From assembly GCA_046964515.1 (NCBI GenBank), contig JBKUYM010000001.1, positions 402,842 through 466,841 on the forward strand: a DNA stretch of 64,000 nucleotides, in the 5' to 3' direction. The translations under genes and the position numbers were made by a program. Under the pieces are notes generated by a model. The model searched no databases, was not told where the DNA came from, and saw only the letters and a list, made by a program, of their open reading frames with translations. This document shows, in pieces, positions 7,551-49,945 of the stretch (position 1 is the stretch's first letter; every line of letters begins with the position of its first letter). Origin of the DNA: Clostridia bacterium (lineage in GTDB: Bacteria; Bacillota; Clostridia; TANB77; CAG-508).

Positions 7551-7590
7551 AAAGCAATTTTGAGAAAAAATAAATTGCTTTATTTTTATG
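7551..7590 (+). terminator. Intrinsic terminator, copy A of the recurrent downstream motif
   Basis: Hairpin aaagcaattt...aaattgcttt followed by atttttATGaAAACTcATGAATAat. Confidence 0.55.
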
Positions 7591-7684
7591 AAAACTCATG
7601 AATAATGTTTAGAAAGAAATAGAAGAAAACAAAAACAAAAGTAAGTTATAATGAACCATGAAAATAAACAAAGGAGGAAATAAA

Positions 7685-8365
7685 ATGTACAATAAAGGTA
7701 TTACAATGATAGTTTTAGTGATTACCATCATCATACTAATTATCTTGGCAGGGGTATCTTTAAATCTTACAATAGGAGAAAATGGCATCTTTCAGCAGGC
7801 AAAACAAGCCAAAGAAAATATGCAGTTGGCAAAAATAGAAGAAGAAGAGCAACTCAATCGTACTTATGGTGAAATGATAGCACAACTCGGACCAGGGGAA
7901 AAAGAAGAACTAGAAAATAAACTAGATTCCATAAAGAAGGAATATGATGATTTCAAAAATGAGATAAAAGCTATTCTAATACAAAAAGAAATACCAGTAG
8001 GAGAAGAAGCTTCAAATGAAGAAATGATCAATCATTTAAAAGAGTTGTCAGTAGTAAGAGGGTATGTACAACCATATCTTTATGCCATGAGTTGTGGAGA
8101 CAATAGGCAATTAAATTTTGAGTTTCAATTTGATGTACAAGGATATACGACCTTATATATTGAAAGCTATAGAAATGTGGGGGCATTAACCGTTAATTTT
8201 TATGGGATAAAAGAAGATGGAACAAGTACGAAACTAACAACTTCTATTCCTAAAAAAGAAAATCCACTTCAGGTAGAAGCCTATAAAACAATAAAAATGG
8301 AAGGTGTTTGTGCAAGTAATTCTACGTTTTCACAAATTTATGTATATAATGTTACTGTAAAATAA
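7685..8365 (+). CDS. Pilin-like N-terminus family protein P1 with a beta-rich C-terminal domain
   Basis: N-terminus MYNKG|ITMIVLVITIIILIILAGVSLNLTIGENGIFQQAKQAKEN. AAAGGAGGA RBS before the ATG at 7685; the ORF track extends to 7658. Confidence 0.7.
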   Translation: MYNKGITMIVLVITIIILIILAGVSLNLTIGENGIFQQAKQAKENMQLAKIEEEEQLNRTYGEMIAQLGPGEKEELENKLDSIKKEYDDFKNEIKAILIQKEIPVGEEASNEEMINHLKELSVVRGYVQPYLYAMSCGDNRQLNFEFQFDVQGYTTLYIESYRNVGALTVNFYGIKEDGTSTKLTTSIPKKENPLQVEAYKTIKMEGVCASNSTFSQIYVYNVTVK

Positions 8366-8381
8366 TAATCAATAGGATAAA

Positions 8382-8420
8382 AAGATAGAAGTCATAAAAA
8401 TAAAAACTTCTATCTTTTTA
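8382..8420 (+). terminator. Intrinsic terminator after P1
   Basis: Hairpin aagatagaagt / acttctatctt plus T-run. Confidence 0.6.
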
Positions 8421-8488
8421 CATATTGTAAAATATATAAAATAAGCATATAATAAAAGTAATAAAAAAATAGATAGGAGAAATACAAA

Positions 8489-9608
8489 ATGGAACCATCA
8501 AAAGTATATTTTACAGATTTTCGAGCAAAACCAGGAATGAACTTATTACAAAAATTAAAGAGATTAATAAAGCAAGCAGGTATAGAAACCATAGATTTCA
8601 ACCATAAATTTGTGGCTATTAAAATTCATTTTGGAGAACCAGGAAATTTAGCATATTTAAGACCAAATTATGCTAAAGTAGTAGCAGATTACGTAAAAGA
8701 ATTAGGCGGTATTCCTTTTTTAACAGATTGTAATACCCTTTATGTAGGGAGAAGAAAAAATGCTGTGGACCATATAGACGCTGCTTACGAAAATGGATTT
8801 ACACCGTATGCTACAGGGTGTCAAGTCATCATTGCAGATGGATTAAAAGGAACTGATGATATAGAAGTTCCTGTATCTGGTGAATATGTGAAAAATGCTA
8901 AAATAGGAAGAGCCATTATGGATGCAGATATTATCATTTCCTTAAATCATTTTAAAGGTCATGAATCTACAGGCTTTGGAGGTGCTCTTAAAAATTTAGG
9001 AATGGGATGTGGATCTCGTGCAGGAAAAATGGAAATGCATAGTTCACGGAAAACCGGTACCAGATATCCAAAATTGTGTGGGATGTAAGCAATGTATAAA
9101 ACAATGCGCACATGGTGCTATTTCCTATGATAAAAATGGAAAAGTACAGATAGACCATGAAAAATGTGTGGGGTGTGGTAGATGCATTGGCGTATGCAAT
9201 TTTGATGCCATAGAGCCAGGAGATAATCATTCAAACGATATTTTAAATAAGAAAATTGCAGAATATACCTTAGCAGTTGTAAAGGGAAGACCAAATTTTC
9301 ATATAAATATCATTACCGATGTATCACCAAATTGTGATTGTCATAGTGAAAATGATAGTCCAATCGTACCGAATATAGGCATGCTTGCTTCTTTTGACCC
9401 AGTCGCTTTAGATATGGCGTGTGCTGATTTGGTTAATAAGCAAACACCATTTGCCAATAGTCACATAGGGGATATAGAACATGAGAATGGAACGAAACAT
9501 GCAGATGTTTTTATAAGAAACCATCCAGAGACGAATTGGAAAGTGGGATTAGAACATGCACAAAAAATAGGAATTGGCAATGAACAATACGAATTGAAGA
9601 AAATTTAA
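8489..9608 (+). pseudogene. DUF362-domain protein with two 4Fe-4S ferredoxin motifs, interrupted by a +1 frameshift near 9050
   Basis: Two overlapping ORFs, 8489-9088 and 9009-9608. Together they reconstitute one DUF362/ferredoxin protein: ...GMGCGSRAGKMEMHSS then KPVPDIQNCVGCKQCIKQCAHGAI...CVGCGRCIGVC. The frame changes in an AAAA run at about 9050-9053. It could be a sequencing error, a real pseudogene or a programmed frameshift. Confidence 0.6.
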
Positions 9609-12921: not shown

Positions 12922-12956
12922 AGAACATATCTAAAAAAGATATGTTCTTTTCTATG
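12922..12956 (+). terminator. Intrinsic terminator after nrdG
   Basis: gagaacatatc-taaaaaa-gatatgttct plus ttt. Confidence 0.6.
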
Positions 12957-13079
12957 TAAAGTTGTGTTTATACAAGTAAAATAAAAAACTAAAAAAGATA
13001 AAAGGTATTGTTATAATAAAAACAAGCATAAAATACAATTCGCTCTAGTTAGCAAACTAGAGTAAAAAGGAGACGACTT

Positions 13080-14165
13080 ATGAAAACAGAAAAAGGCATT
13101 ACCTTAATATCTTTAGTTATTATAATTATAATCTTGACTATTTTAGTAGGGATTGGTTTAAATGTAACGATAGGAGCAGATGGAATTATTACAAGAGCCA
13201 AGCAAGCAAAACAAAATATCATTTTAGCAGGAGAAGCAGAAGCCATGCAATTAAATCAACTTTACTATGAATTAGAAACAGGGGGAGAATTAACAGAAGA
13301 TGAAGAAAGTAGTAAAAAAGACGAAATTATTAGCTTACTGCAAAAGCAAGTAGAAGACTTACAAAAACAAGTAGCTGTTTTACAGACAGAAAATACCAAT
13401 TTAAAAAAACAAATACAAGAATTAATGGAACAAATAAACCAGTTACAGCAAGAAATAGTAAATTTGAAAGCACAAATAGCTAGTAAAGATATAGAAATAG
13501 CAGAACTAAAAGAACAAGTAAGTGAAAAAGAATTGAAAATTAAAGAACTACAAAATCAATTAAATAGCTTAAATTCTTTATTATCACAGACAAATAGCAC
13601 AGCTGATAAAATTCTATTTGGCTATAAAGCCTATAGTGAAGGAAAATTATTAACAGGAACTATGGTTAATCGAGGAGCGGTAAGTAGTAACTTAAATGCA
13701 GGGCAAAGTTATACTATACCAGCAGGTTATCACAATGGTTCTGGAAAAATAATAGCCAATAACTTAGCCGATCAGACACAAGCAACTGCCGATGCCTCTC
13801 AAATTATACTAGGATATACTGCCTGGGTAAATGGAAATAAATTAACAGGAACCAATAAAGGATATGAAGAAGGCTATAATGCGGGGAAAAACGAAGGAGA
13901 AGCTAGTAGTATAAACAATAGTAAAGTAAGATTGATTTACTATGGACCAAATAATAACTGGTGTATTGCAGGGATTATGATTCCTAATACAGCTACAAAA
14001 GTGTATTGCTCAAATGGGCAGATAACGATATTTAATACTTATGATGACTTAGGACCCTATGCAATAGCTACTTTAAGTAATGGAGACAATGTAGTAAACT
14101 ATAGAGGAAAGATAGCAGGCGTAAGAGTTAATGGACAAAATAATGCATTATTATGGTTTGAATAA
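13080..14165 (+). CDS. Pilin-like N-terminus family protein P2 with a long coiled-coil and a C-terminal beta-rich domain
   Basis: N-terminus MKTEKG|ITLISLVIIIIILTILVGIGLNVTIGADGIITRAKQAKQN. About 100-aa heptad-rich segment (LQKQVEDLQKQVAVLQTEN...). Shares the EDEESxKKDEIIS motif with P4. GGAG RBS. Confidence 0.7.
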   Translation: MKTEKGITLISLVIIIIILTILVGIGLNVTIGADGIITRAKQAKQNIILAGEAEAMQLNQLYYELETGGELTEDEESSKKDEIISLLQKQVEDLQKQVAVLQTENTNLKKQIQELMEQINQLQQEIVNLKAQIASKDIEIAELKEQVSEKELKIKELQNQLNSLNSLLSQTNSTADKILFGYKAYSEGKLLTGTMVNRGAVSSNLNAGQSYTIPAGYHNGSGKIIANNLADQTQATADASQIILGYTAWVNGNKLTGTNKGYEEGYNAGKNEGEASSINNSKVRLIYYGPNNNWCIAGIMIPNTATKVYCSNGQITIFNTYDDLGPYAIATLSNGDNVVNYRGKIAGVRVNGQNNALLWFE

Positions 14166-25855: not shown

Positions 25856-25895
25856 GGAATATAAAAATGTAATTTATAATATATAAAATGAATAA

Positions 25896-32806: not shown

Positions 32807-32825
32807 ATATAAGGAGGAAAAAAAG

Positions 32826-34019: not shown

Positions 34020-34027
34020 ATAAATCC

Positions 34028-34062: not shown

Positions 34063-34085
34063 TGTTTTGGAAAGGGAGTGCCTTT

Positions 34086-35439: not shown

Positions 35440-35468
35440 TTGACATTAACCAAAAGGTAATATAAAAT
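35440..35468 (+). promoter_or_regulatory. Conserved family promoter for P5
   Basis: gattgacattaaccaaaaggtaatataaaat, followed by the ggaaaacataagaaaaaaagaaggggag leader. Confidence 0.55.
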
Positions 35469-35526
35469 TATCGTATAAGAAAATATAAAAATGGAAAACA
35501 TAAGAAAAAAAGAAGGGGAGATAAGC

Positions 35527-37257
35527 ATGAGAGAAAAAGTAAACCAAAAGGGTATTACATTAATAGCATTAGTGATTACAATTATCGTATTAATCATTTT
35601 AGCAGGTGTAGCCATTAATACTTTAGTAGGAGAGAATGGGATTATTACACAAGCACAAAGAGCGAAAAATGAAACCGCACAAGGGCAAAAAGAAGAAGCA
35701 GGAGGATTAGCTAGTTTAGAACAACAAATAGATGAGGCAACTGGAAAAACGTATATAACAGAAAAGGGCGTTAATAAACCACGATTAGCAACAGGAATGA
35801 AAGCCATCAAATTTACAAATCCAAGTGAAAGTGCTAAAGGAGAAGCACAAGACAGTAGCGAAAATGATACGGAATGGTATGATTATAATAGTAAAAAGTG
35901 GGCGAATAGCCAGACAGAAGATGGAAGTATGTGGGTATGGATACCTAGATATGCGTATAAAGTAAATGATAATCAAACCTTTGATATAAAGTTTTTAATA
36001 GGAACAACGGATAATTATTATGATGAAAATGGACAAATACAAACAGCCAAAAGATGTAACAGTGTAGATGAAAATGTAGATACAACAACAGGATATACGG
36101 TGCATCCAGCTTTTACAGATGAAACAGCGATAAGTTATAGAAATGGAGGATGGGATAAAGAGCTAACTGGAATATGGGTAGCAAAATTCGAAGCAGGATA
36201 TGCTAGTGGAAATAATAGCGCAACAGTTAAGGCAAGTAGTGTTAGCTATTCACAAAACACTTCTAGTGTAAGAGGAGTAGAAAGAGGACAAAGTACGGAA
36301 GGGAGTGAATTGTCTCGTAACTGGTTAGATGGAATATATGGAAGTACAAATACAGCTATAAAATATCCAACCTTCCAAGGAACCACGTATAGTATGAATT
36401 ATATCAATCAAAATGATGCTTATAATATAGCCAAGGCTATGACAGAGAGTGGAAATATTTATGGATTAACTGCAAGTGCAGACTCCCACTTAATGAAAAA
36501 TAGTGAATGGGGTGCAGTAGCATACTTAAGTCAAAGTAAATATGGATTAAATGGAACAGATATTGCGATTAATAATGTTAACTTAAACAGTGGAGGAGTA
36601 GCAAGAACGCAGACAGCAGGAAAAAGTGGTGTAGATAGTGTATATGCTATAACCGGATGTACAACAGGAACAAATAATGGAGCGGAAAAAGTAACAACAA
36701 TTGCCAATATTAATGGTACAACAGCTAATACAGCAGTAGACGGTGTATATACATGGAATCAGTTAAGTGGAACAAAGGCTAGTTCATCAGGTACTATATA
36801 TGGAATTTATGATTTAAGCGGAGGACTATGGGAAAGAACAGCAGCTTATGTAGCTAATGAAAATGAAAATTTAAAAACTTATGGTTCTAGTATAGCTTAT
36901 GATGGTTCTACTTTAAAAACAACAAGTACAAAATATACAACAGCTTATCCATTTGATAGCACTATAGATAATACTAGTATTATAAATAATGATACAAATT
37001 TAAATACGGCAAGTGCCAACAATTATAAGAAAGATACTTCAATCTATGGCGACGGTATCCAAGAGACTTCAATAACCGGAACTGGAAATACTAGTTGGTA
37101 TGGTGACTACTCGTATTACACAGGCTTAAATAATCCATTCTCACTTCGTGGCGGTTATTTCTGGCATGGATCAGGTGCTGGTTTGTTCTATTTCCATCGC
37201 AGTCCTGGTGGCAGCGGTTACGGTGGCGGGTTCCGCACGGTGCTGGCTGTGTCCTAG
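35527..37257 (+). CDS. Pilin-like N-terminus family protein P5 with an FGE-sulfatase (C-type-lectin-fold) C-terminal domain
   Basis: N-terminus MREKVNQKG|ITLIALVITIIVLIILAGVAINTLVGENGIITQAQRAKNE. C-terminal motifs SEWGAVAY, GGLWER, RGGYFWHG...GFRTVL. Internal Met after a GAAGGGGAG RBS; the ORF track extends to 35491. About 75% identity to P3. Confidence 0.7.
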   Translation: MREKVNQKGITLIALVITIIVLIILAGVAINTLVGENGIITQAQRAKNETAQGQKEEAGGLASLEQQIDEATGKTYITEKGVNKPRLATGMKAIKFTNPSESAKGEAQDSSENDTEWYDYNSKKWANSQTEDGSMWVWIPRYAYKVNDNQTFDIKFLIGTTDNYYDENGQIQTAKRCNSVDENVDTTTGYTVHPAFTDETAISYRNGGWDKELTGIWVAKFEAGYASGNNSATVKASSVSYSQNTSSVRGVERGQSTEGSELSRNWLDGIYGSTNTAIKYPTFQGTTYSMNYINQNDAYNIAKAMTESGNIYGLTASADSHLMKNSEWGAVAYLSQSKYGLNGTDIAINNVNLNSGGVARTQTAGKSGVDSVYAITGCTTGTNNGAEKVTTIANINGTTANTAVDGVYTWNQLSGTKASSSGTIYGIYDLSGGLWERTAAYVANENENLKTYGSSIAYDGSTLKTTSTKYTTAYPFDSTIDNTSIINNDTNLNTASANNYKKDTSIYGDGIQETSITGTGNTSWYGDYSYYTGLNNPFSLRGGYFWHGSGAGLFYFHRSPGGSGYGGGFRTVLAVS

Positions 37258-37507
37258 CAGATATATAAAGAATGCTTTGTATATAGGATAATAATAAACT
37301 AAATAAGTAACTTAAATGAAAGTAAAATAAAAAAATAGGATGAAGGAGATAAAATTCTCACCTATTTTTATGTAAGAGCATGAATGTATAAGATATAAAG
37401 AAAAAAGGTTAATTCGTAATAAGATAATCATTATTTTAACTTTATTATATATACAAGTTACGACACAAACTATATGATAAAAATAGAAATTGTAAAAAAT
37501 TCCTTAA

Positions 37508-37546
37508 AAAAACCGAGCAGAAAGGGTAAAAATTCTACTCGGTTTT
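37508..37546. terminator. Hairpin terminator in the P5-rpoB intergenic region
   Basis: ccgagcagaa-agggtaaaaa-ttctactcgg, with A-runs and T-runs on either side. Confidence 0.45.
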
Positions 37547-37710
37547 TTCTTAGAAAATGAAATGTAATCATGAAAAATTGTATCTCAAATGGTATCATGT
37601 TAATATGAAAAACAAAACATATGCCAAAACAATTAAAATTACCACTAGACATTGAAAGAATGATGGATTTTATAATTCTACAAAATTATTTGAAAAATCT
37701 ATAAAAAAGA

Positions 37711-37740
37711 TTGACAAGATTACCCTTTTTGCAGTATACT
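37711..37740 (+). promoter_or_regulatory. Putative sigma70 promoter for rpoB-rpoC (TTGACA-18-TATACT) with a ~400-nt leader
   Basis: ttgacaagattaccctttttgcagtatact. Confidence 0.45.
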
Positions 37741-38150
37741 AAAATAGTATAAGGAGTTTTATCGCCAAAAGAGAAAGATAAAACAAAAAGATAACGCCAA
37801 ACATAGAAAAATAGTGGGGTTGATCAAAATATTCACGTTAAAAATGAGAGATAAGTAATAGGGAACAAAAGCAAAGATAGTTGGCAAAAAATAATATATT
37901 GCCGACATATCTTTTTGTTGCCTATTTGTCTGTTTAAGTACATTTTAATAAGAAGAGGAATTAGCTATATCTTATTAGTAAAGGTTTGTTTTTTATAAGC
38001 AGGAAAACAGATAGGTATGTATGAGATAATTGTATAAGAGGGACTTCTTTTTATCTATAAATTTTATTCACAAAAGTAGCTAAAATGTTAAAAATACATT
38101 TTATGCGTTAAAATTTGTATCTGCTTAAATTTATTTAGGGGTGATTGGTT

Positions 38151-41100
38151 TTGACAAAGGATATTAAACATGAAAAGTGCACACGTAAAACGTTTGCAAA
38201 GATTGGCGATTTTATAGAAATGCCAAACTTAATTAAAGTCCAAAAAGATTCTTATGATTGGTTCATAGAAGAAGGACTAGGTGAAGTATTAAAAGATATT
38301 TCTCCAATTGTTGACTATTCTGGTAATTTGGTTCTTGAATTTTTCGATTATTACATGGAAGAGAAAACAAAATATTCTGTAGAAGAAGCAAAAGAAAGAG
38401 ATGCAACTTATTCTACAAGATTACATGTAAAGGTTAGACTAATCAATCGTGAGACAGGTGAAATTAAAGAGCAAGAAATTTATCTTGGTGATTTCCCACT
38501 TATGACAGATAGCGGTACCTTTATTATTAATGGTGCAGAAAGAGTAGTTGTTAGTCAGTTAGTTCGTTCACCAGGTTGCTATTATGCCGATGATTATGAT
38601 AAAACCGGAAAGAAGATTTATACTTCTACGGTTATGCCAATACGTGGTGCATGGATTGAATATGAAACAGATGGAAACGATGTATTTTGGGCAAGGGTAG
38701 ATAGAACTAGAAAAATACCAGTTACATCACTTTTAAGAGCAATAGGGCTTGCAACAGATGAACAAATAGTGGCTCTATTTGGGGAAGAGCCAAAAATTTT
38801 AGCAACACTTCAAAAAGACCCAATTAAAACTGCCGATGAAGCATTAATTGAAATTTACAAGAAATTAAGACCGGGAGAACTTCCAACAGTAGATGCTGCT
38901 AGAAATTTATTCAATGGTTTGTTCTTTGATCCTAGAAGATATGATTTGGCAAAAGTAGGAAGATACAAGTTTAATAAAAAATTAAACTTAAGCTTTAGAA
39001 TTACAGGACTAGAAGCTTATGAGGATATTATTGATCCAACAACAGGGGAAGTTTTAGTAGAAAAAGGCAATATTATCTCTAAAGACGTAGCAGAAGAAAT
39101 TCAAAATACAGGCTTAAATATTGTTGATGTAAAAGTAGGAGACAGCAAGGTTAGAATCATTGGTAATGGAACAGTTAATATTCATAAAGTAGTTACAAAC
39201 ATAGATATTTCTGATTTACATTTCAAAGAAGAAGTTAATTATGAAGTACTAAAATCTATTTTAGATACAACAGAAGAAAAAGACTTACATAATGTATTAA
39301 AAGAAAGAAAAGAAGAGTTAATACCAAAACATATTACAAATGAAGATATCATTGCTTCTATAAATTATTTATTAAATTTAGACCATGGATTAGGAAATGT
39401 AGATGATATCGATCATCTAGGAAATAGACGTATTCGTTGTGTTGGGGAGTTATTACAAAATCAGTTTAGAATTGGTTTAACGAGATTAGAAAGAGTTGTT
39501 CGTGAAAGAATGACGATTCAAGACTTGGATGTTGTAACACCACAAACTTTAATTAATACAAAGCCAATTACTTCTTCTATTAGGGAATTTTTTGGAAGTT
39601 CTCAGTTATCACAATTTATGGATCAAACAAATCCATTATCAGAACTTACTCATAAGAGAAGAATTTCTGCATTAGGACCTGGTGGACTTTCAAGAGAAAG
39701 AGCAGGATTTGAAGTACGTGATATTCACTATACCCATTATGGTAGATTATGTCCAGTAGAATCACCAGAAGGACCAAATATCGGACTTATCTCTGCATTA
39801 TCTTCTTTTGCAATTATTAATGAATATGGATTTATTGAAACACCATATAGAAAAGTAGATCATACAACTGGAAAGATAACGGATATTGTGGAATATATGC
39901 CAGCTGATGAAGAAGATAATTACATTATTGCACAAGCATCAGAACCATTAGATAAAGAAAATAAGTTTGTTAATAAAAGAATTCGTGTACGTCATAGAGC
40001 AGAAATTACAGAAGTAGATGCTGATCAAGTAGACTACATAGATGTTTCACCAAAAGAATTAGTTTCTGTAGCAGCTGCTATGATTCCTTTCTTAGAGCAT
40101 GATGACGTAAAACGTTCTCTAATGGGCTCTAACATGCAACGTCAAGCTGTACCACTTTTAACAACAGAAGCACCTATCGTCGGAACAGGAATTGAATATA
40201 GAGCAGCAAAAGATTCTGGTATTACAGTAACTGCTAAAAATGAAGGGGTTATAGAGAAAGTTTCAGCAGAAGAAATTCAAGTTAGAAATAAAAAGAATGA
40301 AATAGATACTTATCGTTTGCGCAAATTTAAAAGAACAAATGGTGGAACTTGTATCAATCAAAGACCAGTAGTTACAAGAGGAGAAAGAGTAAAAGAAGGA
40401 GACATTTTAGCAGATGGACCATCTACTAAAAATGGAGAAATGTCTTTAGGAAAAAATGTATTAATCGCTTTTACTACTTGGGAAGGTTATAACTATGAAG
40501 ATGCTGTTTTAATTAGTGAAAGACTTGTTAAGGAGGACGTTTATACTTCTATTCATATTGAAGAATATGATTGTGAATGTAGAGATACGAAATTAGGTCC
40601 AGAAGAAATTACAAGAGACATTCCTAATGTGGGGGATGATGGCTTAAAAGATTTAGATGAAAATGGTATTATTCGTATTGGTGCAGAAGTAAGACCTGGA
40701 GATATCTTAGTTGGTAAAGTAACACCAAAAGGAGAAACCGAATTAACAGCAGAAGAAAGATTGCTTCGTGCTATCTTTGGAGAAAAAGCAAGAGAAGTAA
40801 GAGATACTTCTTTAAGAGTACCTCATGGAGAAGCGGGTACGATTGTAGATGTAAAAATCTTTACGAGAGATAACTCTGATGAATTAGGACCTGGTGTTAA
40901 TCAAGTAATTCGTTGTTATATTGCTACAAAGAGAAAAATTTCTGTTGGTGATAAAATGGCTGGTCGTCATGGAAATAAAGGTGTTATTTCTAGAATTCTT
41001 CCAGAAGAAGATATGCCATTTATGCCAGATGGTACGCCAGTAGATATTGTTCTTAACCCACTTGGTGTTCCTTCTCGTATGAACTTAGGTCAAGTTTTAG

Positions 41101-41888
41101 AAGTTCATTTAGGAATGGCAGCAAGAGCCTTAGGATGGAAAGTAGCAACACCAGTATTTGATGGTGCAACAGATAAAGAAATTGAAGAATTATTAGAAGA
41201 AGCAGGTATGCGTAGAGATGGAAAAACGGTTCTTTATGATGGAAGAACAGGAGAAGCATTTGATAACCCAATTACCGTTGGTGTTATGTATATGTTGAAA
41301 CTACATCACTTAGTAGATGATAAAATCCATGCTCGTTCAACAGGACCATATTCTTTAGTAACGCAACAACCTCTAGGTGGTAAAGCACAATTTGGTGGAC
41401 AACGTTTTGGAGAGATGGAAGTTTGGGCATTAGAAGCCTATGGCGCAGCGTATACTTTACAAGAAATGTTAACTGTAAAATCAGATGATGTAGTAGGACG
41501 TGTAAAGACCTATGAAGCCATTGTAAAAGGAGAAAATGTTCCAGAACCAGGTGTTCCAGAATCTTTCAAAGTATTAATAAAAGAATTACAATCTTTAGGT
41601 TTAGATGTACGTTTGTATTCAGAGGATAATCAAGAACTAGAATTAAAAGAACATATTGATGAAGGTATTGACTATGAAGAGACAAAAGTAGGTTCTAATG
41701 TTTTAGATGAAGCAGAATTAGAAGATAGTTACATTGAAGCTGACGAAGATACGGAGGATATGCTATTAGATACAGAAGAAGATACCGATGAATTATTTGA
41801 AGAACTAGATGACGAAGGAGACGATTCTATTTTTGATAATGATTTAGCAGAAGATAATCTTTTAAATGATGAAGGGGAATTAGAATAG
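38151..41888 (+). CDS. rpoB: DNA-directed RNA polymerase subunit beta
   Basis: Unmistakable RpoB blocks ([30 protein letters not shown], the rifampicin cluster [42 protein letters not shown]). TTG at 38151 sits 7 nt after the AGGGGTGA RBS; there is an alternative TTG at 38145. About 60-aa acidic C-terminal tail. Confidence 0.9.
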
Positions 41889-41905
41889 GAAAAGAGTTGT
41901 CGTAT

Positions 41906-42226
41906 ATGGATACTTCTTTTGTACCAAGAATTGTTGTAGAAGCAAATAACTATAGAAAACCTAGGATAGTGGATTATAGAGAGATAATAGAAGAGGTACA
42001 AATCCTGCTTATGAAAGAAGGATACCAAGTTGCCTTTAATGCAGTAGAAATCTATAATAGATTAACGCAAAAATTTTCATTTAGAGAAGATATGCGCAAA
42101 GAAGAAATCTTGGATACTATAAGAATGTGCCTAAAAAGGTTAGAAAAACAACAGTTTCTAAAAAGAAATGAAGAAAATCAATATGTTATAAAAAGGCAGA
42201 GAGAAGAAAGTCTTATAGAAATGTAA
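41906..42226 (+). CDS. Small hypothetical protein encoded between rpoB and rpoC
   Basis: 107-109-aa ORF filling the rpoB-rpoC gap. Sense strand. GGAAAAGAG RBS-like element. No recognisable motif. Confidence 0.4.
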   Translation: MDTSFVPRIVVEANNYRKPRIVDYREIIEEVQILLMKEGYQVAFNAVEIYNRLTQKFSFREDMRKEEILDTIRMCLKRLEKQQFLKRNEENQYVIKRQREESLIEM

Positions 42227-42338
42227 TTGAATAGGTTAAAAGGAAATAGAAATGGACAAAATAAGATGCACAGCGCAGGATCATTACTATGACATAATAA
42301 CCAGGCAAAAACTAAAAAATCAGGGGGGCTAACCAAAG

Positions 42339-45300
42339 GTGGATGAATTAGAAATTTTTGATAAGATCAAAATAGGATTAGCATCAGACGAGAAAATTAG
42401 AGAATGGTCAAAAGGAGAAGTTAAAAAACCAGAGACTATTAACTATAGAACTTTAAAACCAGAAAAAGATGGTCTATTCTGTGAAAGAATATTTGGACCA
42501 ACAAAAGATTGGGAATGTCATTGTGGAAAATACAAAAGAGTTAGATATAAAGGGATTGTCTGTGATAGATGTGGTGTAGAAGTTACCAAAGCAAAAGTAA
42601 GACGTGAAAGAATGGGACATATTGAACTTGCTGCGCCAGTTGCTCATATATGGTATTTTAAAGGTATTCCAAGTAGAATTGCTTTAATGTTAGACATTTC
42701 ACCAAGAAGTTTAGAAAAAATCGTCTATTTTGCTTCTTATATTGTTATTGATAAGGGAACATCTGGTTTAATGAAAACACAAGTATTATCAGAAAAAGAA
42801 TATCATGAAGCAGTAGAAAAATATGGTGTTGGCAGTTTTAAAGCAGAAATGGGAGCAGAAGCTTTAGAAAAATTATTAAGGGAAATTGATTTAGATAAAC
42901 TATCTGCTAAATTAAAGAAAGAATTAGAAACAGCAAGTGAGCAAAAGAAAGCAAAATTAATTAAAAGATTAGATACTGTAGAATCTTTTAGATTATCTGG
43001 AAATAGACCTGAATGGATGATTATGAATGTAGTACCAGTTATTCCACCAGAGTTAAGACCAATGGTACAATTAGATGGTGGTAGATTTGCTACATCTGAC
43101 TTAAATGATTTATATAGAAGAGTAATTAATAGAAATAATCGTTTAAAAAGATTAGTAGAATTAGGTGCTCCAGAAATTATTAAAAGAAATGAAAAAAGAA
43201 TGCTTCAAGAATCAGTAGATGCGTTAATTGATAATGGAAGACGTGGAAGACCTGTAACTGGAGCCGGAAATAGACCATTAAAATCTTTATCAGATATGCT
43301 AAAAGGTAAACAAGGTCGTTTCCGTCAAAACTTACTTGGTAAACGTGTTGACTATTCCGGACGTTCTGTTATCGTTGTAGGACCAGAACTTAAAATTTAT
43401 CAATGTGGTCTTCCAAAAGAAATGGCAGTAGAATTATTCAAACCATTTGTTATGAAAGAATTAGTGGGAAGAGGTATTGCTCACAATATTAAAAATGCAA
43501 AAAGAATGGTAGAAAGATTACGTCCTGAAGTATGGGATATTTTAGAGGATGTAATTAAAGACCATCCTGTTATGCTAAACCGTGCACCTACGCTACATAG
43601 ACTTGGCATTCAAGCATTTGAACCTGTTTTAGTAGAAGGTAGAGCTATTAAATTACATCCATTAGTTTGTACAGCATTTAATGCTGACTTTGATGGTGAC
43701 CAAATGGCTATTCACGTTCCACTATCACCAGAAGCACAGGCAGAAGCAAGATACTTAATGCTATCTGTTAATAACTTATTAAAACCACAAGATGGTAAAC
43801 CAGTAACTGTTCCTACACAAGATATGATTTTAGGAAGTTATTATCTAACTATGGAAGTCGATGGCGAAGTAGGAGAGGGAAATTATTTCTCTTCACCAGA
43901 AGAAGCTATTATTGCCTATGAAAACAAAGAAGTGGGAATGCATGCTAAAATATTTGTTAGAATGAGCAAAATAGAAAATGGTGTGGAAAAACATAAAAAA
44001 GTAGAAACAACAGTTGGTAGAATTATTTACAATAAAGGTATTCCACAAGATTTAGGATTTGTTGACAGAAGCAATCCAGATAATGAATTTGAATTAGAAA
44101 TTAATTTTGTTGTTAAAAAGAAAAATCTTGGAAAAATTATTGAAAAATGTATCAATGTTCATGGATTAAATCGTTCTGCAGAATTGTTAGATTATATTAA
44201 AGCCACTGGATTTAAATATTCTACAACAGGTGCTATTACAGTTTCTATCGATGATGTTAAAGTACCAGAAGCGAAAAAAGAAATTCTAGAACATGCATCT
44301 AAAGAAGTAGAAACCGTATTAAAACAATATAAACGTGGTTTGATTACAGAAGAAGAAAGATATAACTCTGTTATTAAAATTTGGGAAAAAGCAACAGATA
44401 ATGTAAAAGATGCCATGAGAGATAACTTTACAAGTTTAAACCCTGTATTCATGATGTCAGAATCTGGTGCTAGAGGTAACTTAGACCAATTAAAACAAAT
44501 TGCAGGTATGCGTGGTCTTATGGCAAGTACAACTGGTAAAACAGTTGAAATTCCAATTAAGTCTTCTTTTAGAGAAGGTCTAGATGCTTTAGAGTACTTT
44601 ATCTCTGCCCATGGTGCTCGTAAAGGTTTATCAGATACAGCATTAAGAACAGCCGATTCTGGATATTTGACAAGAAGATTAGTAGATGTTTCTCAAGATA
44701 TTATCGTTAGAGAACATGACTGTGGAACACATGATGGCATTGAATTAACGGCTATAAAAGATGGAAATCAAGTTATTGAAAGTTTACAAGAAAGATTAAT
44801 TGGTAGATATCCATTAGAAGATATTGTTCATCCAGAAACAGGAGAATTAATAGTAGATACGAATACTTTAATTAATGACAAAATTGCAGATAGCATTGTA
44901 GAAGCTGGTATTGAAAACGTTTTAGTTCGTAGCGTATTTGGTTGTAGAACAAAATATGGTGTTTGTTCAAAATGCTATGGTATGGGTCTTGCAAGTAGAC
45001 AAGAAGCAGATATTGGTGAAGCAGTTGGTATTATTGCTGCACAATCTATTGGTGAACCTGGTACACAGCTTACTATGAGAACGATTCACTCTGGTGGTGT
45101 TGCTGGTGTTGCCGATATTACACAAGGTCTTCCTAGAGTTGAAGAATTATTTGAAGCTAGAAAACCAAAGGGATTAGCAATTATTTCTGAGATAGATGGA
45201 ACTGTTAAAATTTCTGATGAGAAAAAGAGAAAAGAAATCATTGTTACTTCAAAAGACGATAGTAAAACATATGTAATTCCATTTGGATCAAAATTAAAAG

Positions 45301-45899
45301 TAAAAGAGGGAGATACTGTTACAGCAGGTCAACCACTTACAGAGGGATCTGTTAATCCAAATGAATTATTATTAATTAAAGGACCGGCTGGTGTATATAA
45401 TTACTTAGTACAGGAAGTACAAAAAGTATATAGAAACCAAGGTGTTGATATTAATGATAAGCATATTGAAGTTATTGGAAGACAGATGTTAAAGAAGATA
45501 AGAGTAGAAGATAATGGGGATACTACTTTATTTGCAGGTTCTTTAGTGGATATGTATGAATTTGAAGCAATTAATAATCAGGCAATTCAAGAAGGTAAAC
45601 GTCCTGCAACAGGAAAACGAGTATTATTAGGTATTACAAAAGCTTCTCTTGCAACAGATAGTTTCTTATCTGCAGCTTCTTTCCAAGAAACAACAAGAGT
45701 GTTAACAGAAGCCGCTATTAAAGGAAAAGTAGATGAATTAATTGGCTTAAAAGAAAATGTGATTATTGGTAAATTAATTCCTGCAGGTACTGGTCTTGCT
45801 AAATATAAAAATACCCATATTAGTACAGAAGAAGATTCTGTAGAAGCACAAACGGAGGATAAGCAAGATACTGAAAAAATAGAAGAAGATGTAGGATAA
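42339..45899 (+). CDS. rpoC: DNA-directed RNA polymerase subunit beta'
   Basis: The N-terminus [57 protein letters not shown] is near-identical to B. subtilis RpoC. NADFDGD catalytic motif. GTG start. Confidence 0.9.
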
Positions 45900-45913
45900 T
45901 AAGGTAAAAAGTA

Positions 45914-45950
45914 AGATAGGAGAGATTTATTCTTCTATCTTATTTTTCAT
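45914..45950 (+). terminator. Intrinsic terminator after rpoC
   Basis: aagatag-gagagatttattctt-ctatctt plus attttt. Confidence 0.5.
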
Positions 45951-46007
45951 TTACAAAATAAAACAAGAAAGGTATAATAAGAAAAAAGAAAGGATAGGAG
46001 AAAAAAT

Positions 46008-47297
46008 ATGAAATTATATATAAAAAATGCCACTTTGTTATCTATGGATGAGAAAAGAGAAAAAGTAGAAGAAAATATGGATATCGAAATTTCTGGGAAC
46101 CAGATAATAAAAATAGGTAAAAACCTAACCGGTGAAGAAAATGCAAAAATGATAGATGCTACAGGAAAGGTGGTAATGCCAGGACTCATTAATACCCATG
46201 CACATATTCCGATGAGTATTTTTAGAGAAACCGTGGATGGACTTTCTCTACAGGAATGGTTACAAGATAAAATATGGCCGATGGAAGATCAATTGACCAA
46301 AGAAGATATTTACCAAGCTTCTAAGTTGTCTTTTATGGAAATGATTCGAACAGGAACTACCACTATTAATGATATGTATTTTATGACAGAATCTATTATA
46401 GAAGCTGCTATACAAGCAGGAATTAGATTACAAACGACTAGAACATTGACTTCTGTTGCAGGAGAAGAAGATGGACAAAAGAAATTAGAGGAATTTAAAG
46501 AATTATTAGAAAAATATAGAAATCAGAATAGTCGCATTACTTTTAATGCAGGTATCCATGGATTATACACTTCTAGTAGAGAATATGTGGATAAATGTAT
46601 TGCTTTTGCAAAAGAAGAAGCATTAAGGATACATATGCATTTTTGTGAAAATACAAAAGAAGTAGAAGATATTAAACAAGCTTATGGAGAAAGTCCAGTT
46701 AGTGTTATAGAAAAGGACTTTAAAGGAATCGATGTGTTATTAGCACATTGTGTAAAATTAAATAAAGAAGAAATTGCTAGGATGGCAACATTACCGATTC
46801 ATATTTCTCATTGTCCAGTTAGTAATTTAAAATTAGGCTGTGGGGTAGCCAATATTGCACAAATGGTAAATGCAGGTATGAATGTTAGTTTAGGCACAGA
46901 TGGGCAAGGAAGTGGTAGTAATTTAGATTTATTTGAAACTATGAAATATACAGCTTTATTGCAAAAAGGGATACAAGAAGATGCGAAACAATTACCTGCT
47001 TATCAAGTTATACAAATGGCAACAATGAATGGTGCTAAAGCATTAGGAATGGAAAGTCAAATAGGTAGTATTGAAGAAGGTAAGCTTGCAGATATGATCA
47101 TTTTAAATTTAGATACCTGTGTAATGCAACCAGTTAATGATTTATGTTCAGACATTGTATATAATGCAAAGGGAGAAAATGTAGAGACTACCATAGTTAA
47201 TGGGGAAATCTTAATGGAAAATAAACAATTAAGAGGCATAGAAGGGCAAGAAGTTTATGAGAAGTGTAGAAGCATTATAGAAAGAATAAAACAATAA
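46008..47297 (+). CDS. mtaD: Amidohydrolase of the 5-methylthioadenosine/S-adenosylhomocysteine deaminase type
   Basis: MPGLINTHAHIPMS metal-binding motif and Amidohydro_1 architecture with HxH...H...H..D. 429 aa. Confidence 0.7.
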   Translation: MKLYIKNATLLSMDEKREKVEENMDIEISGNQIIKIGKNLTGEENAKMIDATGKVVMPGLINTHAHIPMSIFRETVDGLSLQEWLQDKIWPMEDQLTKEDIYQASKLSFMEMIRTGTTTINDMYFMTESIIEAAIQAGIRLQTTRTLTSVAGEEDGQKKLEEFKELLEKYRNQNSRITFNAGIHGLYTSSREYVDKCIAFAKEEALRIHMHFCENTKEVEDIKQAYGESPVSVIEKDFKGIDVLLAHCVKLNKEEIARMATLPIHISHCPVSNLKLGCGVANIAQMVNAGMNVSLGTDGQGSGSNLDLFETMKYTALLQKGIQEDAKQLPAYQVIQMATMNGAKALGMESQIGSIEEGKLADMIILNLDTCVMQPVNDLCSDIVYNAKGENVETTIVNGEILMENKQLRGIEGQEVYEKCRSIIERIKQ

Positions 47298-47438
47298 AGT
47301 GTAAACAAATTTAATTACATGAAAAGATCTAGTATACCAAAACATCTATATTAGGTCTTACTTTTTTATTCCATATGTAATAAGAAAATTATCAGGTATG
47401 GAAAATATAAAGAATAGAAAGAAAGGTAAAAAGAGAAA

Positions 47439-47720
47439 ATGAATTACCAAATAAAAGAAGAAAATCAAAAATTTTTATTAATCGAAGAAGAAAAAGAAAT
47501 TGGAAATTTAAAGTTTATAAAAGATGTAGAAGGTGATTTTATAATTGAATCTATCTTCATAGAAGAAGCCTATAGAGGAGAAGGATATGCTCAAATTATT
47601 TTTAATGAATTTATTGAAAAGGTAAAAAAAGAGAAACGTAAAGTAATACCAATTTGTACATATGCACAAGCACAATTTCGAAAAAGAAAAAGTATACAAT
47701 ACTTATTAAAAAATGTATAA
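47439..47720 (+). CDS. Small GNAT-like N-acetyltransferase-fold protein (Acetyltransf_CG type)
   Basis: 93 aa. The ...IESIFIEEAYRGEGYAQ...ICTYA... pattern is typical of the short GNAT-like family. Confidence 0.5.
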   Translation: MNYQIKEENQKFLLIEEEKEIGNLKFIKDVEGDFIIESIFIEEAYRGEGYAQIIFNEFIEKVKKEKRKVIPICTYAQAQFRKRKSIQYLLKNV

Positions 47721-47779
47721 ATAAGAAAATAGTTGTCTTGAAAACAAAATTGTAGAAGAGTACGCATGGGCAGGAGTCC

Positions 47780-47808
47780 TTGACAAAGCCTAGAAATAAG
47801 AGTACAAT
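47780..47808 (+). promoter_or_regulatory. Putative sigma70 promoter for gdpP (TTGACA-17-TACAAT)
   Basis: ttgacaaagcctagaaataagagtacaat. Confidence 0.5.
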
Positions 47809-47840
47809 AGAGTTTGTAAATAGTATAAAAGGAGAATATT

Positions 47841-49874
47841 ATGCCCCAAAATAATAGTAGAAAATTATTTGACAAATTTATATCTAAGACAAAAATCTAT
47901 TTAGTAATTATAGCTATACTTTTAATTATAGTATGTTGTTATGAAGTAAATTATATTACACCAGCTATTTTATTATATATCTTAATTTTAATGTATGCTT
48001 ATTGGACAAATAATAAAAGAAAAGCAGAATTATCAGAACATATTAAGGATTTAACATTAACAGTAGACACTGCTGCTAAAAGTACTTTAATTAATTCCCC
48101 TTTTCCATTAATTATTATAGAGACAGATGGTAACATTATATGGAAAAGTTCTAAATTTATACATGAATTTGCGAATATTGATATTAATAGTTATTTAAAT
48201 AACATTGTAAGAGAGCTTAAATTAGAAATTGAAAATAGTAGTGAAGAAAATAAAAAAGAGTTAGAAGAACTGATAAAGAAACAAATAAAAATAGGAGATA
48301 AAACTTATAAAATATTAGGAGAATATGTAAAATCAAAAGAAAAAGAGAAAAATAAAGATGAAGAATATATGGCTACGCTTTATTTTATAGATGAAACACA
48401 GAACATTGAATTAGCAGAGAAATATAAAAATTCTAAAATTTGTGTTGGTATTATTATGATTGACAACTATGAAGAAATTATGCAAAGAATTGCCAGCGAA
48501 GATAGACCACAAATTGTAGCTCAAATAGAAAAGACACTATATGATTGGGCTAATGCTTTTGAAGGTTTGATTGTAAAATCAGATCGTGATACGTTTGTTG
48601 TTATCTTAGAACAAAAATATATTGAAATATTAGAAGAAAATAAATTTAATATTTTAGATACCATTAAGGAAATCAGTATACCAGGAAAAATACAATCTAC
48701 TCTTAGTATTGCTATTTCTAATGAAGGAAAGTCAAATTATGAGAAATATAAATCTGCTAGTGCTGCAATGGATTTGGCTTTAGGACGTGGTGGAGACCAA
48801 GCCGTTATTAGAAAAGATGGAAAATATAACTTTTTTGGTGGAAGAGCCCAAGAAATGGAAAAAAGAACAAAAGTAAAGGCTAGAATTGTATCCCATGCTT
48901 TAGAAGAATTAATGCAGGAATCTAAAAATGTTATGATTATGGGACATGCGAATAGTGATATAGATGCTATGGGATCTAGTTTTGGAATATATCGTTTAGC
49001 CAAAGCAATTGGAAAAGAAGCCTATATTATTAATAATACGTTTGGTATTAGTATTGACCATTTTATGGAAGAAGCTAAGAAACAAGAAGAATATCAAGAA
49101 GCAATTCTTAATAAAGAAAGAGCGATTGAACTAATTGGACCAGACACATTATTAATTGTGGTAGACACACATAAAAAGAACTATGTAGAAGTTCCAGAAT
49201 TACTAGAAAAAACAAATAAAATTGTTATAATAGATCATCATAGAAGAAGTCCAGACTTTATTGAAAATGCGATTTTAACTTTTCACGAAGTGTATGCTTC
49301 TTCAGCAGCAGAACTAGTAACAGAATTAATAGAATATTCTGAAAATGATATAAAATTAACACAAATAGAGACAGAAGGTTTGTATGCTGGTATTATGATG
49401 GACACAAAAAACTTTACTTTTAAAACAGGTGTTAGGACTTTCGAAGCGGCAGCCTATTTACGTAAATGTGGAGTAGATATTATAAAAGTAAAAAAATGGT
49501 TCCAGAGTGATTTAGATACTTATCATAAAATTTCAGAAATTGTAGCAAAAGCAGAAATTGTTAATACCACTATAGGGATTTCTATTTATGAAAAAGAAGA
49601 TGATAATGCAAATATTATTTGTGCTAAAGCAGCAGATGAGTTATTAACCATTAGTGATATTACAGCCTCTTTTGTAATTGGTAATTTAGGAGATAAAGTA
49701 TGTATTAGTGGACGTTCTATAGGCGATATTAATGTACAAGTTATTTTAGAAAAATTAGGAGGCGGCGGACACATTACATTAGCGGGAGCTCAAGTAGAAG
49801 GTATGAATACAGAAGAAGTAAAACAAGAATTAATGAATAGAATTAATGAATATTTTACAGAAATTTCAAGTTAA
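47841..49874 (+). CDS. gdpP: Cyclic-di-AMP phosphodiesterase GdpP (2TM-PAS-degenerate GGDEF-DHH/DHHA1)
   Basis: Two N-terminal TM segments. DHH motifs (MGHANSDIDAMGS, IIDHHRRS). DHHA1 GGGH motif (GGGGHITLAGAQ). Position relative to rplI-dnaB is typical. Confidence 0.85.
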   Translation: MPQNNSRKLFDKFISKTKIYLVIIAILLIIVCCYEVNYITPAILLYILILMYAYWTNNKRKAELSEHIKDLTLTVDTAAKSTLINSPFPLIIIETDGNIIWKSSKFIHEFANIDINSYLNNIVRELKLEIENSSEENKKELEELIKKQIKIGDKTYKILGEYVKSKEKEKNKDEEYMATLYFIDETQNIELAEKYKNSKICVGIIMIDNYEEIMQRIASEDRPQIVAQIEKTLYDWANAFEGLIVKSDRDTFVVILEQKYIEILEENKFNILDTIKEISIPGKIQSTLSIAISNEGKSNYEKYKSASAAMDLALGRGGDQAVIRKDGKYNFFGGRAQEMEKRTKVKARIVSHALEELMQESKNVMIMGHANSDIDAMGSSFGIYRLAKAIGKEAYIINNTFGISIDHFMEEAKKQEEYQEAILNKERAIELIGPDTLLIVVDTHKKNYVEVPELLEKTNKIVIIDHHRRSPDFIENAILTFHEVYASSAAELVTELIEYSENDIKLTQIETEGLYAGIMMDTKNFTFKTGVRTFEAAAYLRKCGVDIIKVKKWFQSDLDTYHKISEIVAKAEIVNTTIGISIYEKEDDNANIICAKAADELLTISDITASFVIGNLGDKVCISGRSIGDINVQVILEKLGGGGHITLAGAQVEGMNTEEVKQELMNRINEYFTEISS

Positions 49875-49895
49875 AATATAAAGAGTCAAGTAAAA

Positions 49896-49945
49896 AGAAG
49901 AACAAACAAGATGGTTTGTTCTTTTTTTATGCAAATTATGTGAAT
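49896..49945 (+). terminator. Intrinsic terminator plus copy D of the recurrent motif
   Basis: agaacaaacaagatggtttgttct, then ttttttATGCAAATTATGTGAATAgc. Confidence 0.55.

Follow-up and report, generated by a model that had tools for sequence, protein, structure and literature searches.

The OmpR/PhoB family of response regulators prefers tandem direct repeats. UP elements and phased A/T tracts are reportedly found upstream of Gram-positive sigma-A promoters, and bent DNA is said to occur at C. perfringens plc. Intergenic repeats that lie at terminators or form them include REP/BIME, the DUS pairs of Neisseria and the USS pairs of Haemophilus. The WalR/VicR box, from the OmpR/PhoB family, has the form TGTWAH-N5-TGTWAH (PMC4168254). 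In streptococci, the SigX (ComX) box, or cin-box, consists of a T-tract, 0 to 9 nt and TACGAATA, with TTTTT-9-T(A/g)CGAATA at comGA and comFA, and turns on the comG pseudopilin genes (PMC6001120).

Analysis of a 64-kb stretch of DNA from an uncultured gut Clostridia species (the window, meaning the whole stretch) revealed a 22-nt motif with the consensus TTTTTATG-N5-YTYRTGAATA, in which T5-ATG is invariant (Table 1). The organism is a spore-forming member of the Clostridia (SpoIIE). With a 22-nt position weight matrix (PWM) built from five sequences, 35369(-) among them, the copies in the window scored 25-30 bits, apart from the degenerate matches listed in Table 1; noise at ≥12 bits amounts to about 1.6 hits per 64 kb. 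Searching the window for the 21-mer with up to three mismatches found three occurrences versus 0.04 expected, and 0 of 100 shuffles gave three. The five copies described in the earlier note are all present and recur far above chance; overlooked were copies at 12949(+), 58153(+), 35369(-) and, in another region of the same species, L133:2612(+), possibly also 52081(+). Copy number is low (8-9 in this 64 kb and one in another 17.7 kb), and none lies inside a gene. That the motif encodes no conserved peptide was borne out by the five copies, in which stops follow the internal ATG after 0-8 codons, at differing places. These data support a non-random, non-coding motif upstream of surface-protein genes.

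Table 1. Motif copies and associated features (window coordinates unless a locus is given; promoter elements are predicted)
Feature	Position	Strand	Sequence	Remarks
Copy 1	7583-7604	+	TTTTTATGAAAACTCATGAATA	28.6 bits; upstream of pilin-like gene P1 (7658-8365)
Copy 2	25926-25947	+	TTTTTATGCAAACTTATGAATA	29.9 bits; between AI-2E transporter gene and pilin-like P3 (26107-27831)
Copy 3	27926-27947	+	TTTTTATGCAAACTTGTGAATA	30.5 bits; immediately 3' of P3
Copy 4	49924-49946	+	TTTTTATGCAAATTATGTGAATA	1-nt insertion; opens LPXTG-protein cassette between gdpP and DUF4870 gene
Copy 5	37365-37386	+	TTTTTATGTAAGAGCATGAATG	24.8 bits; immediately 3' of P5
Degenerate copy	12949-12970	+	TTTCTATGTAAAGTTGTGTTTA	12.8 bits; nrdG terminator before, pilin-like gene 13080-14165 downstream
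Degenerate copy	58153-58174	+	TTTTTATGTTATCTTGTAATCA	13.5 bits; ftsH terminator before, pilin-like gene 58295-60196 downstream
Reversed copy	35369-35390	-	TTTTTATGTTATCTTGTGAATA (minus-strand reading)	26.4 bits; ~100 nt upstream of pilin-like P5
Possible further copy	52081-52098	+		loose regex match
Copy in other region of same species	L133:2612	+	TTTTTATGCAAACTTATAAACA	20.9 bits
Hairpin at copy 1	7545-7587			dG -13.4
Hairpin at copy 2	25895-25924
Sigma-70-like promoter, copy 2	25967-25995	+	TTAAAG-N17-TATAAT	-10 42 nt past motif
Promoter-like pair, copy 1	7624-7652	+	AGAAAA-N17-TATAAT	weak -35; 42 nt past motif
Promoter-like pair, 12949 copy	12989-13017	+	CTAAAA-N17-(TGt)TATAAT	exact TATAAT 41 nt past motif
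Promoter-like pair, copy 3	27974-28002	+	TGGAAA-N17-GATAAT	-10 49 nt past motif
Promoter-like pair, copy 4	49974-50003	+	TGGAAA-N18-TAAAAT	-10 51 nt past motif
Promoter-like pair, 58153 copy	58204-58232	+	TTGAAA-N17-TATAAT
Second block	25979-26002	+	AGGTTAATTTGTATAATAAGATAA	overlaps module promoter -10
Second block, second copy	37406-37427	+	AGGTTAATTCGTAATAAGATAA	3' of P5
Terminator closing orphan unit of copy 3	28132-28178
Terminator closing orphan unit of copy 5	37507-37550
OmpR/PhoB-family response regulator and histidine kinase	28300-31077	+		candidate binder

The motif accompanies one gene family. Seven pilin-like paralogs ("P genes"; N-terminus KGITLIALVITIIILIILAG) lie in the window, and the spacer upstream of six of them contains a PWM match of ≥12 bits, one copy, 35369(-), serving both members of the divergent pair 34086(-) and P5; the seventh, at 52309, has upstream only the loose match at 52081. 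At four independent loci (L130, L131, L133 and L134), which come from the same species or close relatives and were not used for the PWM, matches of ≥12 bits preceded 6 of 10 P genes, compared with 3 of 34 genes of other kinds (Fisher p = 0.0019). The L133 copy directly follows the terminator of a sortase gene and precedes a P gene, and the arrangement of 35369(-) recurs at L131:508, L131:2985 and L134:9908. The proposal that the motif precedes genes for surface or signalling proteins thus needs narrowing: surface-protein genes do lie downstream, but the partner is one paralogous pilin-like family, not such genes in general. Similarly, the copy assigned to the two-component system does lie 352 nt upstream of it, but adjoins the 3' end of P3, with a terminator intervening.

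As the earlier note had proposed, a genuine hairpin directly precedes each of its five copies, with the 3' side entering the T-run. In all, hairpins abut eight forward copies with zero spacing (dG -10.4 to -15 kcal/mol, z -3.0 to -6.8), and those before different copies are unrelated in sequence. Reversed copies at 35369(-), L131:508(-), L131:2985(-), L134:9908(-) and L130:6420(-) have no adjacent hairpin (the flank of 35369(-) folds at 0 kcal/mol) and still retain T5, indicating that the T-run belongs to the motif, which adjoins terminators only because its five leading T's also serve as the terminator T-run. What the motif-bearing terminators have in common is a neighbouring P-family gene; the link to terminators is secondary to that with P genes.

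Downstream, the motif keeps a fixed distance from predicted promoters. An exact TATAAT lies 41-42 nt 3' of the motif in five of nine forward copies, compared with a background of 0.0023 per nt in window spacers; three further forward copies have a -10-like hexamer at 49-52 nt, and each -10 is preceded, 17 nt upstream, by a -35-like hexamer (TTAAAG and TTGAAA among them). All these hexamers are only predicted, as consensus matches in AT-rich DNA. The copy 2 promoter has identical hexamers and spacing at L133:2653-2681, and between copy 2 and L133:2612 the motif (19/22), -35 (6/6) and -10 (6/6) are conserved, whereas the two spacers match at 6/19 and 11/17 positions. Like UP elements, the motif is an AT-rich conserved sequence upstream of the -35, and a ATAAAAAG tract, present to the right of copy 2 as well as in the reversed (P5-type) modules, lies at about -45 to -38, the place of a proximal UP subsite. 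In contrast to UP elements, the forward 22-mer lies past their usual range, and specific G/C positions (ATG, C, TG) are conserved, unlike in a generic A/T tract.

The reading that we favor, with a probability of about one half, is that in this uncultured Clostridia species and its closest relatives the motif forms the promoter-distal upstream end of a ~75-nt promoter module, which goes with the proliferating P genes and with one or more LPXTG-protein cassettes. The proposed order is T5-ATG-N5-YTYRTGAATA, ~19 nt (~27 in some), a weak -35 (TTAAAG/TTGAAA/TGGAAA), 17 nt and TATAAT. With this layout the motif would lie between about -54 and -75 relative to the predicted transcription start. Most likely it would act at the DNA level, with a regulator binding it and helping RNA polymerase at a promoter with a poor -35, the two TATGNA-like units 10 bp apart presenting the same helix face. 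P cassettes would insert as self-contained units 3' of other genes, and the T5 of the module would be the U-tract of the hairpin in front, so that the upstream transcript would end exactly at the module start.

The strong copies show TATGNA-N4-YRTGAA with a 10-bp period (11 bp, N5, at 49924); a partial dyad, TTTTTAT-N8-ATGAATA, fits equally well. As in OmpR/PhoB boxes, two similar hexamers, putative direct half-sites, lie one helical turn apart, upstream of a weak -35 promoter, and an OmpR-family gene stands beside one copy. Unlike in the WalR/VicR box, the hexamer differs, the period is mostly 10 rather than 11 bp, the T5 tract is invariant and the first unit varies (CAAAC, TTATC, TAAGA). Of the suggestions in the earlier note, a DNA-binding site with a putative tandem half-site pattern is still the most plausible; the motif is probably a regulator-binding site. 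The regulator at 28300-29007, a generic member of its family with no specific ortholog, is only a candidate for binding the tandem repeat, chosen because of its position and the preference of the family for tandem direct repeats. Reversed copies adjoin the -35, forward copies lie farther out at about -54 to -75, and this difference in distance and orientation is awkward for a single simple activator.

Because the copies share ancestry, their constant spacing and repeated occurrence might be due in part to descent and not to selection, and the motif might be a functionless relic, the best-preserved piece of an upstream region copied with the P cassettes. Paralogous modules indeed have detectable homology beyond the motif. 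Moreover, the motif is lineage-specific, with a narrow phylogenetic range: no PWM hit of ≥11 bits was found in the relatives L138-L141, and no copy in those at 77-83% GdpP identity, including L140 and L141 (81% and 77%), which still have P-family genes. In L138 (95% GdpP identity), the ortholog of copy 4 is split by ~10 nt, and the copy at L130:311 is degenerate (13 bits) with its TATAAT intact, both pointing to a motif that is less constrained than the -10. Against descent alone, the motif is kept between paralogs as well as the -35 and -10, copies 1 and 2 are alike (90% identity) only in 29 nt around the motif and in nothing beyond, and neutral decay would not spare a 22-mer with sharp borders in eight or more spacers that cannot otherwise be aligned. 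We consider a relic unlikely, though deserving some weight.

It is improbable that the motif is itself a promoter for a sigma-H/ComX (SigX)-type sigma factor that turns on the pilin-like genes, with YRTGAATA as the -10. The likeness is an 8-mer 9 nt past a T-tract that differs from the SigX box by one base (TATGAATA versus TACGAATA), as at comGA and comFA, together with pilin-like genes downstream and an orientation toward the downstream gene in 9/9 forward copies. However, the SigX box itself was rejected as the identity of the motif: TACGAATA, with its CGAATA core, is absent, and in none of the 14 copies is the third base of the 8-mer a C. Six of the 14, among them L133:2612 from the same species, have lost GAAT; the invariant T5-ATG is not required by a SigX box; five of the 14 copies face away from the P gene beside them; the AGGA -35 of classical sigma-H promoters is missing; and the host is a spore-forming member of the Clostridia. 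The position of the motif is better explained by a sigma-70-like promoter at a fixed distance.

The P cassettes represent insertions. In relatives, the order is gdpP-DUF4870-rplI and gdpP is not followed by a terminator, whereas in the window and L138 gdpP is followed by a cassette whose start consists of hairpin, T-run and motif; neither P52309 nor P58295 is present in L138-L141. Such presence or absence between conserved core genes, and the fact that module homology begins at the T-run (25926 with L133:2612; 25924 with 37363), would fit a mobile-cassette end or recombination site, with cassettes entering specifically at the 3' border of terminator hairpins, or undergoing exchange and inversion via the motif. 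In a strain of the same species, 17 kb between two P-gene promoters are also inverted, but the crossover lies in the shared promoter/operator, outside the motif. Gene tables of the window and loci list no ORF of a recombinase, transposase or intron, neither a target duplication nor a right end to match was seen, and, because the hairpins are unrelated, a sequence-specific enzyme would have no common target except T-runs, making this reading quite improbable. A MITE- or REP-like mobile repeat was rejected, as only the 22-mer is common, the hairpins are unrelated and the copies track P genes.

Like REP/BIME, DUS and USS, the motif is a short conserved spacer sequence beside terminator hairpins on the leading strand; unlike them, it forms no hairpin, is tied to one gene family, has few copies and does not occur in genes. 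No Rfam match at gathering score was found in the window, and at E ≤ 1 positions 25800-38200 gave nothing beyond chance-level miRNA hits. Highly improbable, despite the abutting hairpins, is a terminator-linked element acting in termination efficiency, read-through control, processing of read-through RNA, anti-termination or small-RNA initiation, since only 5-8 of ~24 terminator-like hairpins in window spacers (counted by eye) carry the motif, reversed copies have no hairpin, promoter spacing is fixed, no structure is seen apart from the terminators and terminated RNA would end within the T-run, without the motif. We do not read the motif as a terminator accessory or RNA element.

The strong copies at 27926 and 37365, which have no recognisable gene after them, lead units of ~160-230 nt that end in another terminator and contain no convincing ORF. 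The copy 3 region is homologous to L130:276-366, which separates two tandem P genes, suggesting that the orphan unit behind P3 is a relic, not an RNA gene. The extension of two copies into a second conserved block was also recovered, with 25924-26020 aligning with 37363-37444 at 72% over 97 nt. At 25979-26002 this block includes GGTTAAT, which on the opposite strand reads ATTAACC, the half-site of the P-gene operator.

The five copies of the 22-nt motif T5-ATG-N5-YTYRTGAATA described in an earlier note were all found where it had placed them, and each is preceded by a stable hairpin (dG −10.4 to −15 kcal/mol, z −3.0 to −6.8) whose 3' arm enters the T-run. The second block that the note saw after two copies was also recovered, with 25924-26020 and 37363-37444 alignable at 72% over 97 nt, and the internal ATG has no conserved reading frame, in agreement with its claim that no conserved peptide is encoded. 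Motif copies scored 25-30 bits with a 22-nt PWM, for which the background at ≥12 bits is ~1.6 matches per 64 kb, and the consensus 21-mer (≤3 mismatches) matched the window three times compared to 0.04 matches expected. Four further matches, one of them strong and in reverse orientation, were absent from the earlier list. A scan of genome contigs with the pattern TTTATGMAAAYTNRTGAATA gave at least 119 matches, all single and spread over all phyla, which shows, among the matches listed, that the motif is not a widespread high-copy repeat; the pattern is loose and the scan otherwise uninformative.

The window is ~30% G+C chromosomal DNA of a spore-forming Firmicute, with genes for SpoIIE, NrdDG and RpoB/C and the run GdpP-L9-DnaB-TilS-FtsH, and near-identical DNA occurs in the 'Clostridia bacterium' MAG GCA_046983985.1 and in gut metagenome assemblies. 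It holds seven paralogous pilin-like genes (P genes), whose products share the N-terminus (K/S)GITLIALVITIIILIILAGVSIN..GDNGIITKAKQAKEN, resembling a prepilin signal and hydrophobic helix but without Glu5; curated pilin models matched these proteins below threshold only. The family is very large (4798 database matches, many paralogs per genome). The C-terminal parts of the proteins, which are 235-633 aa long, differ strongly, and the genes are dispersed singly among core genes, with closely related genomes differing in which of them are present. For the 575-aa subfamily by itself, databases contain thousands of relatives, and one MAG has at least nine copies.

Positions of motif copies, P genes and promoters with the embedded near-palindrome
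Feature	Position	Strand	Remark
Motif copy 1	7583	+	
Motif copy 2	25926	+	
Motif copy 3	27926	+	
Motif copy 4	49924	+	
Motif copy 5	37365	+	
Additional copy	12949	+	weak, forward
Additional copy	58153	+	weak, forward
Additional copy	35369	−	strong, reverse
Additional match	52081	+	doubtful
P gene	7658-8365	+	P1
P gene	13080-14165	+	
P gene	26107-27831	+	P3
P gene	34086-34820	−	
P gene	35491-37257	+	P5
P gene	52309-53130	+	
P gene	58295-60196	+	
TTGACATTAACCnnnnGGTAATATAAAAT promoter	26012-26040		P3
TTGACATTAACCnnnnGGTAATATAAAAT promoter	35440-35468		P5
TTGACATTAACCnnnnGGTAATATAAAAT promoter	52220-52248		P gene 52309
TTGACATTAACCnnnnGGTAATATAAAAT promoter	34909-34881	−	P gene 34086
TTGACATTAACCnnnnGGTAATATAAAAT promoter	L130:399-428		
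TTGACATTAACCnnnnGGTAATATAAAAT promoter	L130:9916-9945		
TTGACATTAACCnnnnGGTAATATAAAAT promoter	L131:579-608		

The motif is associated with P genes. A PWM match of ≥12 bits lies in the upstream spacer of six of the seven window P genes, the divergent pair 34086(−) and P5 having one copy, 35369(−), in common, and the seventh, 52309, has a loose match only, at 52081. In loci independent of the PWM, one from the same species (L133) and three from close relatives (L130, L131 and L134), matches of this strength were found upstream of 6/10 P genes versus 3/34 other genes (p = 0.0019). At L133:2612, a near-perfect forward copy, that is, one pointing toward its downstream gene, stands between the terminator of a sortase gene and a P gene. 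Three strong copies do not precede a P gene, and two of these lie directly behind one (27926 behind P3, 37365 behind P5); copy 49924 is at the start of a cassette with a gene for an LPXTG-type protein. Their position behind P genes, together with the homology of the spacer behind P3 to a spacer separating two tandem P genes in L130, makes copies 27926 and 37365 look like heads of lost downstream units. The orphan units that follow them (27948-28180 and 37387-37552), each with terminator and motif at left and another terminator at right, lack both a convincing ORF and an Rfam match; probably they once headed P cassettes that were lost, or possibly they are small RNAs.

Anchoring nine forward copies on the motif revealed, by consensus matches, a σ70-type promoter at fixed distance. 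Five of the nine have an exact TATAAT 41-42 nt after the motif (7647, 25990, 13012, L133:2676 and one in L130), a hexamer with a frequency of only 0.0023 per nt in window spacers, and three more have a −10-like hexamer after 49-52 nt, about one helical turn further; in each case TTAAAG, TTAAAA, CTAAAA, TTGAAA or TGGAAA lies 17 nt upstream of the −10. Between copy 2 and L133:2612 the motif is conserved about as well as the promoter hexamers, with 19/22 identical positions compared to 6/6 for both −35 and −10, whereas the spacers from motif to −35 and from −35 to −10 retain 6/19 and 11/17. In modules of the P5 type, 3 nt separate a reversed copy (pointing away from the adjoining P gene) from a homologous TTGAAR-N17-GAAAAT pair. 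The reversed copy can be aligned to copy 2's right flank (ACAAGATAAAAAG), which puts its A5 tract at about −45 to −41, where the proximal subsite of a UP element would lie. Four window P genes also have another promoter, stronger than the first and of the σ70 type, in which a near-palindrome is embedded; this looks like an operator for a putative dimeric regulator with the half-site ATTA(A)CC. The second block contains this half-site too (GGTTAAT).

The best-supported reading of these sequence patterns is that the motif acts at the DNA level as an upstream element of the cassette promoter, with its centre near −65. Most simply, a regulator making up for the weak −35 would recognize it, binding in tandem on one helix face to TATGNA-N4-YRTGAA with a 10-bp period (11 bp at 49924), an anatomy that fits the tandem one-face sites typical of winged-helix response regulators. 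Genes for an OmpR/PhoB-family regulator and a kinase adjoin copy 3, making this regulator a candidate binder by position; a metagenome-contig search with the histidine kinase returned relatives only 22-24% identical and hence no orthologous loci. The motif also contains a partial dyad, TTTTTAT-N8-ATGAATA, to which a dimeric helix-turn-helix protein might bind instead. The motif would then belong to a known kind of cis-regulatory element as a new, lineage-specific example, and it would be of value chiefly for marking a set of surface proteins that vary between strains and are probably co-regulated. If this is correct, the proteins marked are pilin-like and come from an uncultured gut Clostridia lineage that is common, and the 22-mer with its promoter module offers a handle on their regulator and expression conditions.

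That the motif is a functionless relic of duplication fits part of the data. We compared the orthologous gdpP-ftsH regions of four relatives (GdpP 95, 83, 81 and 77% identical), a comparison that covers one of the five copies (copy 4, 49924); the species' own genome was represented by ~82 kb of sequence. Ancestrally, the order was gdpP-DUF4870-rplI, gdpP having no terminator behind it, and the LPXTG cassette, which opens with hairpin, T-run and motif, is an insertion common only to the window and the 95% relative (L138), P52309 and P58295 being insertions particular to the window's lineage. The cassette lies between gdpP and the DUF4870 gene (window 50025-52047, L138 2386-4499) and encodes, besides the 373-aa LPXTG-type protein, a membrane protein of 169 aa. 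In the 95% relative its motif is interrupted by ~10 nt (CTTTTGGTGCA-GGAATGTTAG-ATTATGTGAAATA), and the orthologous regions of the four relatives contain no PWM match of ≥11 bits, despite P-family genes in the 81% and 77% relatives. These findings mark the motif as young, restricted to one clade and under moderate constraint only. This weak orthologous conservation favors a relic, whereas what argues against it is that the motif is sharply bounded and conserved like the promoter hexamers in spacers that otherwise cannot be aligned.

We regard as very unlikely a role as cassette end or recombination site, in which T-run, motif and promoter form the defined 5' end of pilin-like and LPXTG cassettes placed at the 3' edge of terminator hairpins, where units would be inserted, duplicated or exchanged. 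It would account for a strain-variable surface-protein repertoire scattered between core genes, but no recombinase, right end or target duplication was found, and the crossover of the sole observed rearrangement lies elsewhere than the motif. In that rearrangement, locus L001 (same species, MAG GCA_046983985.1) joins window 28206-35005 to 52447→50080 reversed, an apparent 17-kb inversion of 35006-52124 containing P5, rpoB, rpoC and gdpP. It is flanked by inverted copies of a P-gene promoter and 5' end (window 34683-35005 and 52125-52447; L001 6466-6788). L001 is a clean recombinant that switches in a 38-nt identical stretch (~34886-34923 and 52207-52244) containing the promoter near-palindrome, a stretch so short that an assembly artefact is not the obvious explanation. 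As for a motif-flanked invertible promoter, the inverted repeats within 34700-35600 proved to be just the mirrored promoters of divergent P genes. A loose search for the right-hand partner (AYAAG...ATAAAAA) had too little specificity to be informative.

The terminator-tied processing, anti-termination or small-RNA role that the earlier note had proposed fails. Five reversed copies (window 35369(−), L131:508(−), L131:2985(−), L134:9908(−) and L130:6420(−)) lie 70-100 nt upstream of P genes with hairpin-free flanks and still keep TTTTTATG, and in forward modules homology starts at the T-run, the preceding hairpins being mutually unrelated, so that the link to terminators reflects shared bases and not function. 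Moreover, many terminators lack the motif, which would itself be absent from the terminated RNA; Rfam searches were null at gathering and permissive thresholds, and the folded orphan units are structured only in their terminators. The T-run is part of the motif, and a new kind of terminator-linked mechanism is not revealed here. The note had described a real feature correctly, but its terminator-associated element now reads as the upstream element of a promoter module of a pilin-like multigene family. For such an upstream element, T5 would double as the U-tract of the preceding terminator, so that upstream transcription would be kept out of the cassette from the very base at which it begins. 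If so, a promoter module and the terminator before it can overlap by the module's first bases, packing 'stop' and 'start' back to back as a feature of a compact genome.

A SigX-type promoter also fails as the identity of the motif: its T5-N9-TATGAATA architecture is similar to the SigX box, TTTTT-9-TACGAATA (PMC6001120), but the C is missing, GAAT is lost in 6/14 copies, ATG is invariant and five copies point away from the gene. With TGAATA as −35, copies 1-5 lack the conserved CATnnTA or GGnnAnAHT that a σG/σF promoter would have 15-18 nt downstream; the AGGA −35 of classical σH promoters, the CGT element of ECF-type promoters (TGAAAC...CGT) and the GG/GC elements of σ54 promoters are absent. 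The ARG box (TNTGAATWWWWATTCANW), cre (WTGNAANCGNWNNCW), the PlcR box (TATGNAN4TNCATA) and Rex/Fnr operators match in one half only, since the motif's second half is a direct copy instead of an inverted one. A small peptide was rejected since stops follow the ATG at varying places and there is no ribosome-binding site.

A weak motif-like sequence at 4643-4664 (−) (TTTTTATGATTGCTTATCTATA), adjoining a hairpin in the spacer before an ABC-transporter operon and without a P-gene link, scored 13.1 bits, which is noise level. The DUF362/4Fe-4S gene at 8489-9608 is apparently split into overlapping frames (8489-9088 and 9009-9608) by a frameshift or sequencing error and is followed by a ~490-nt spacer and nrdD.
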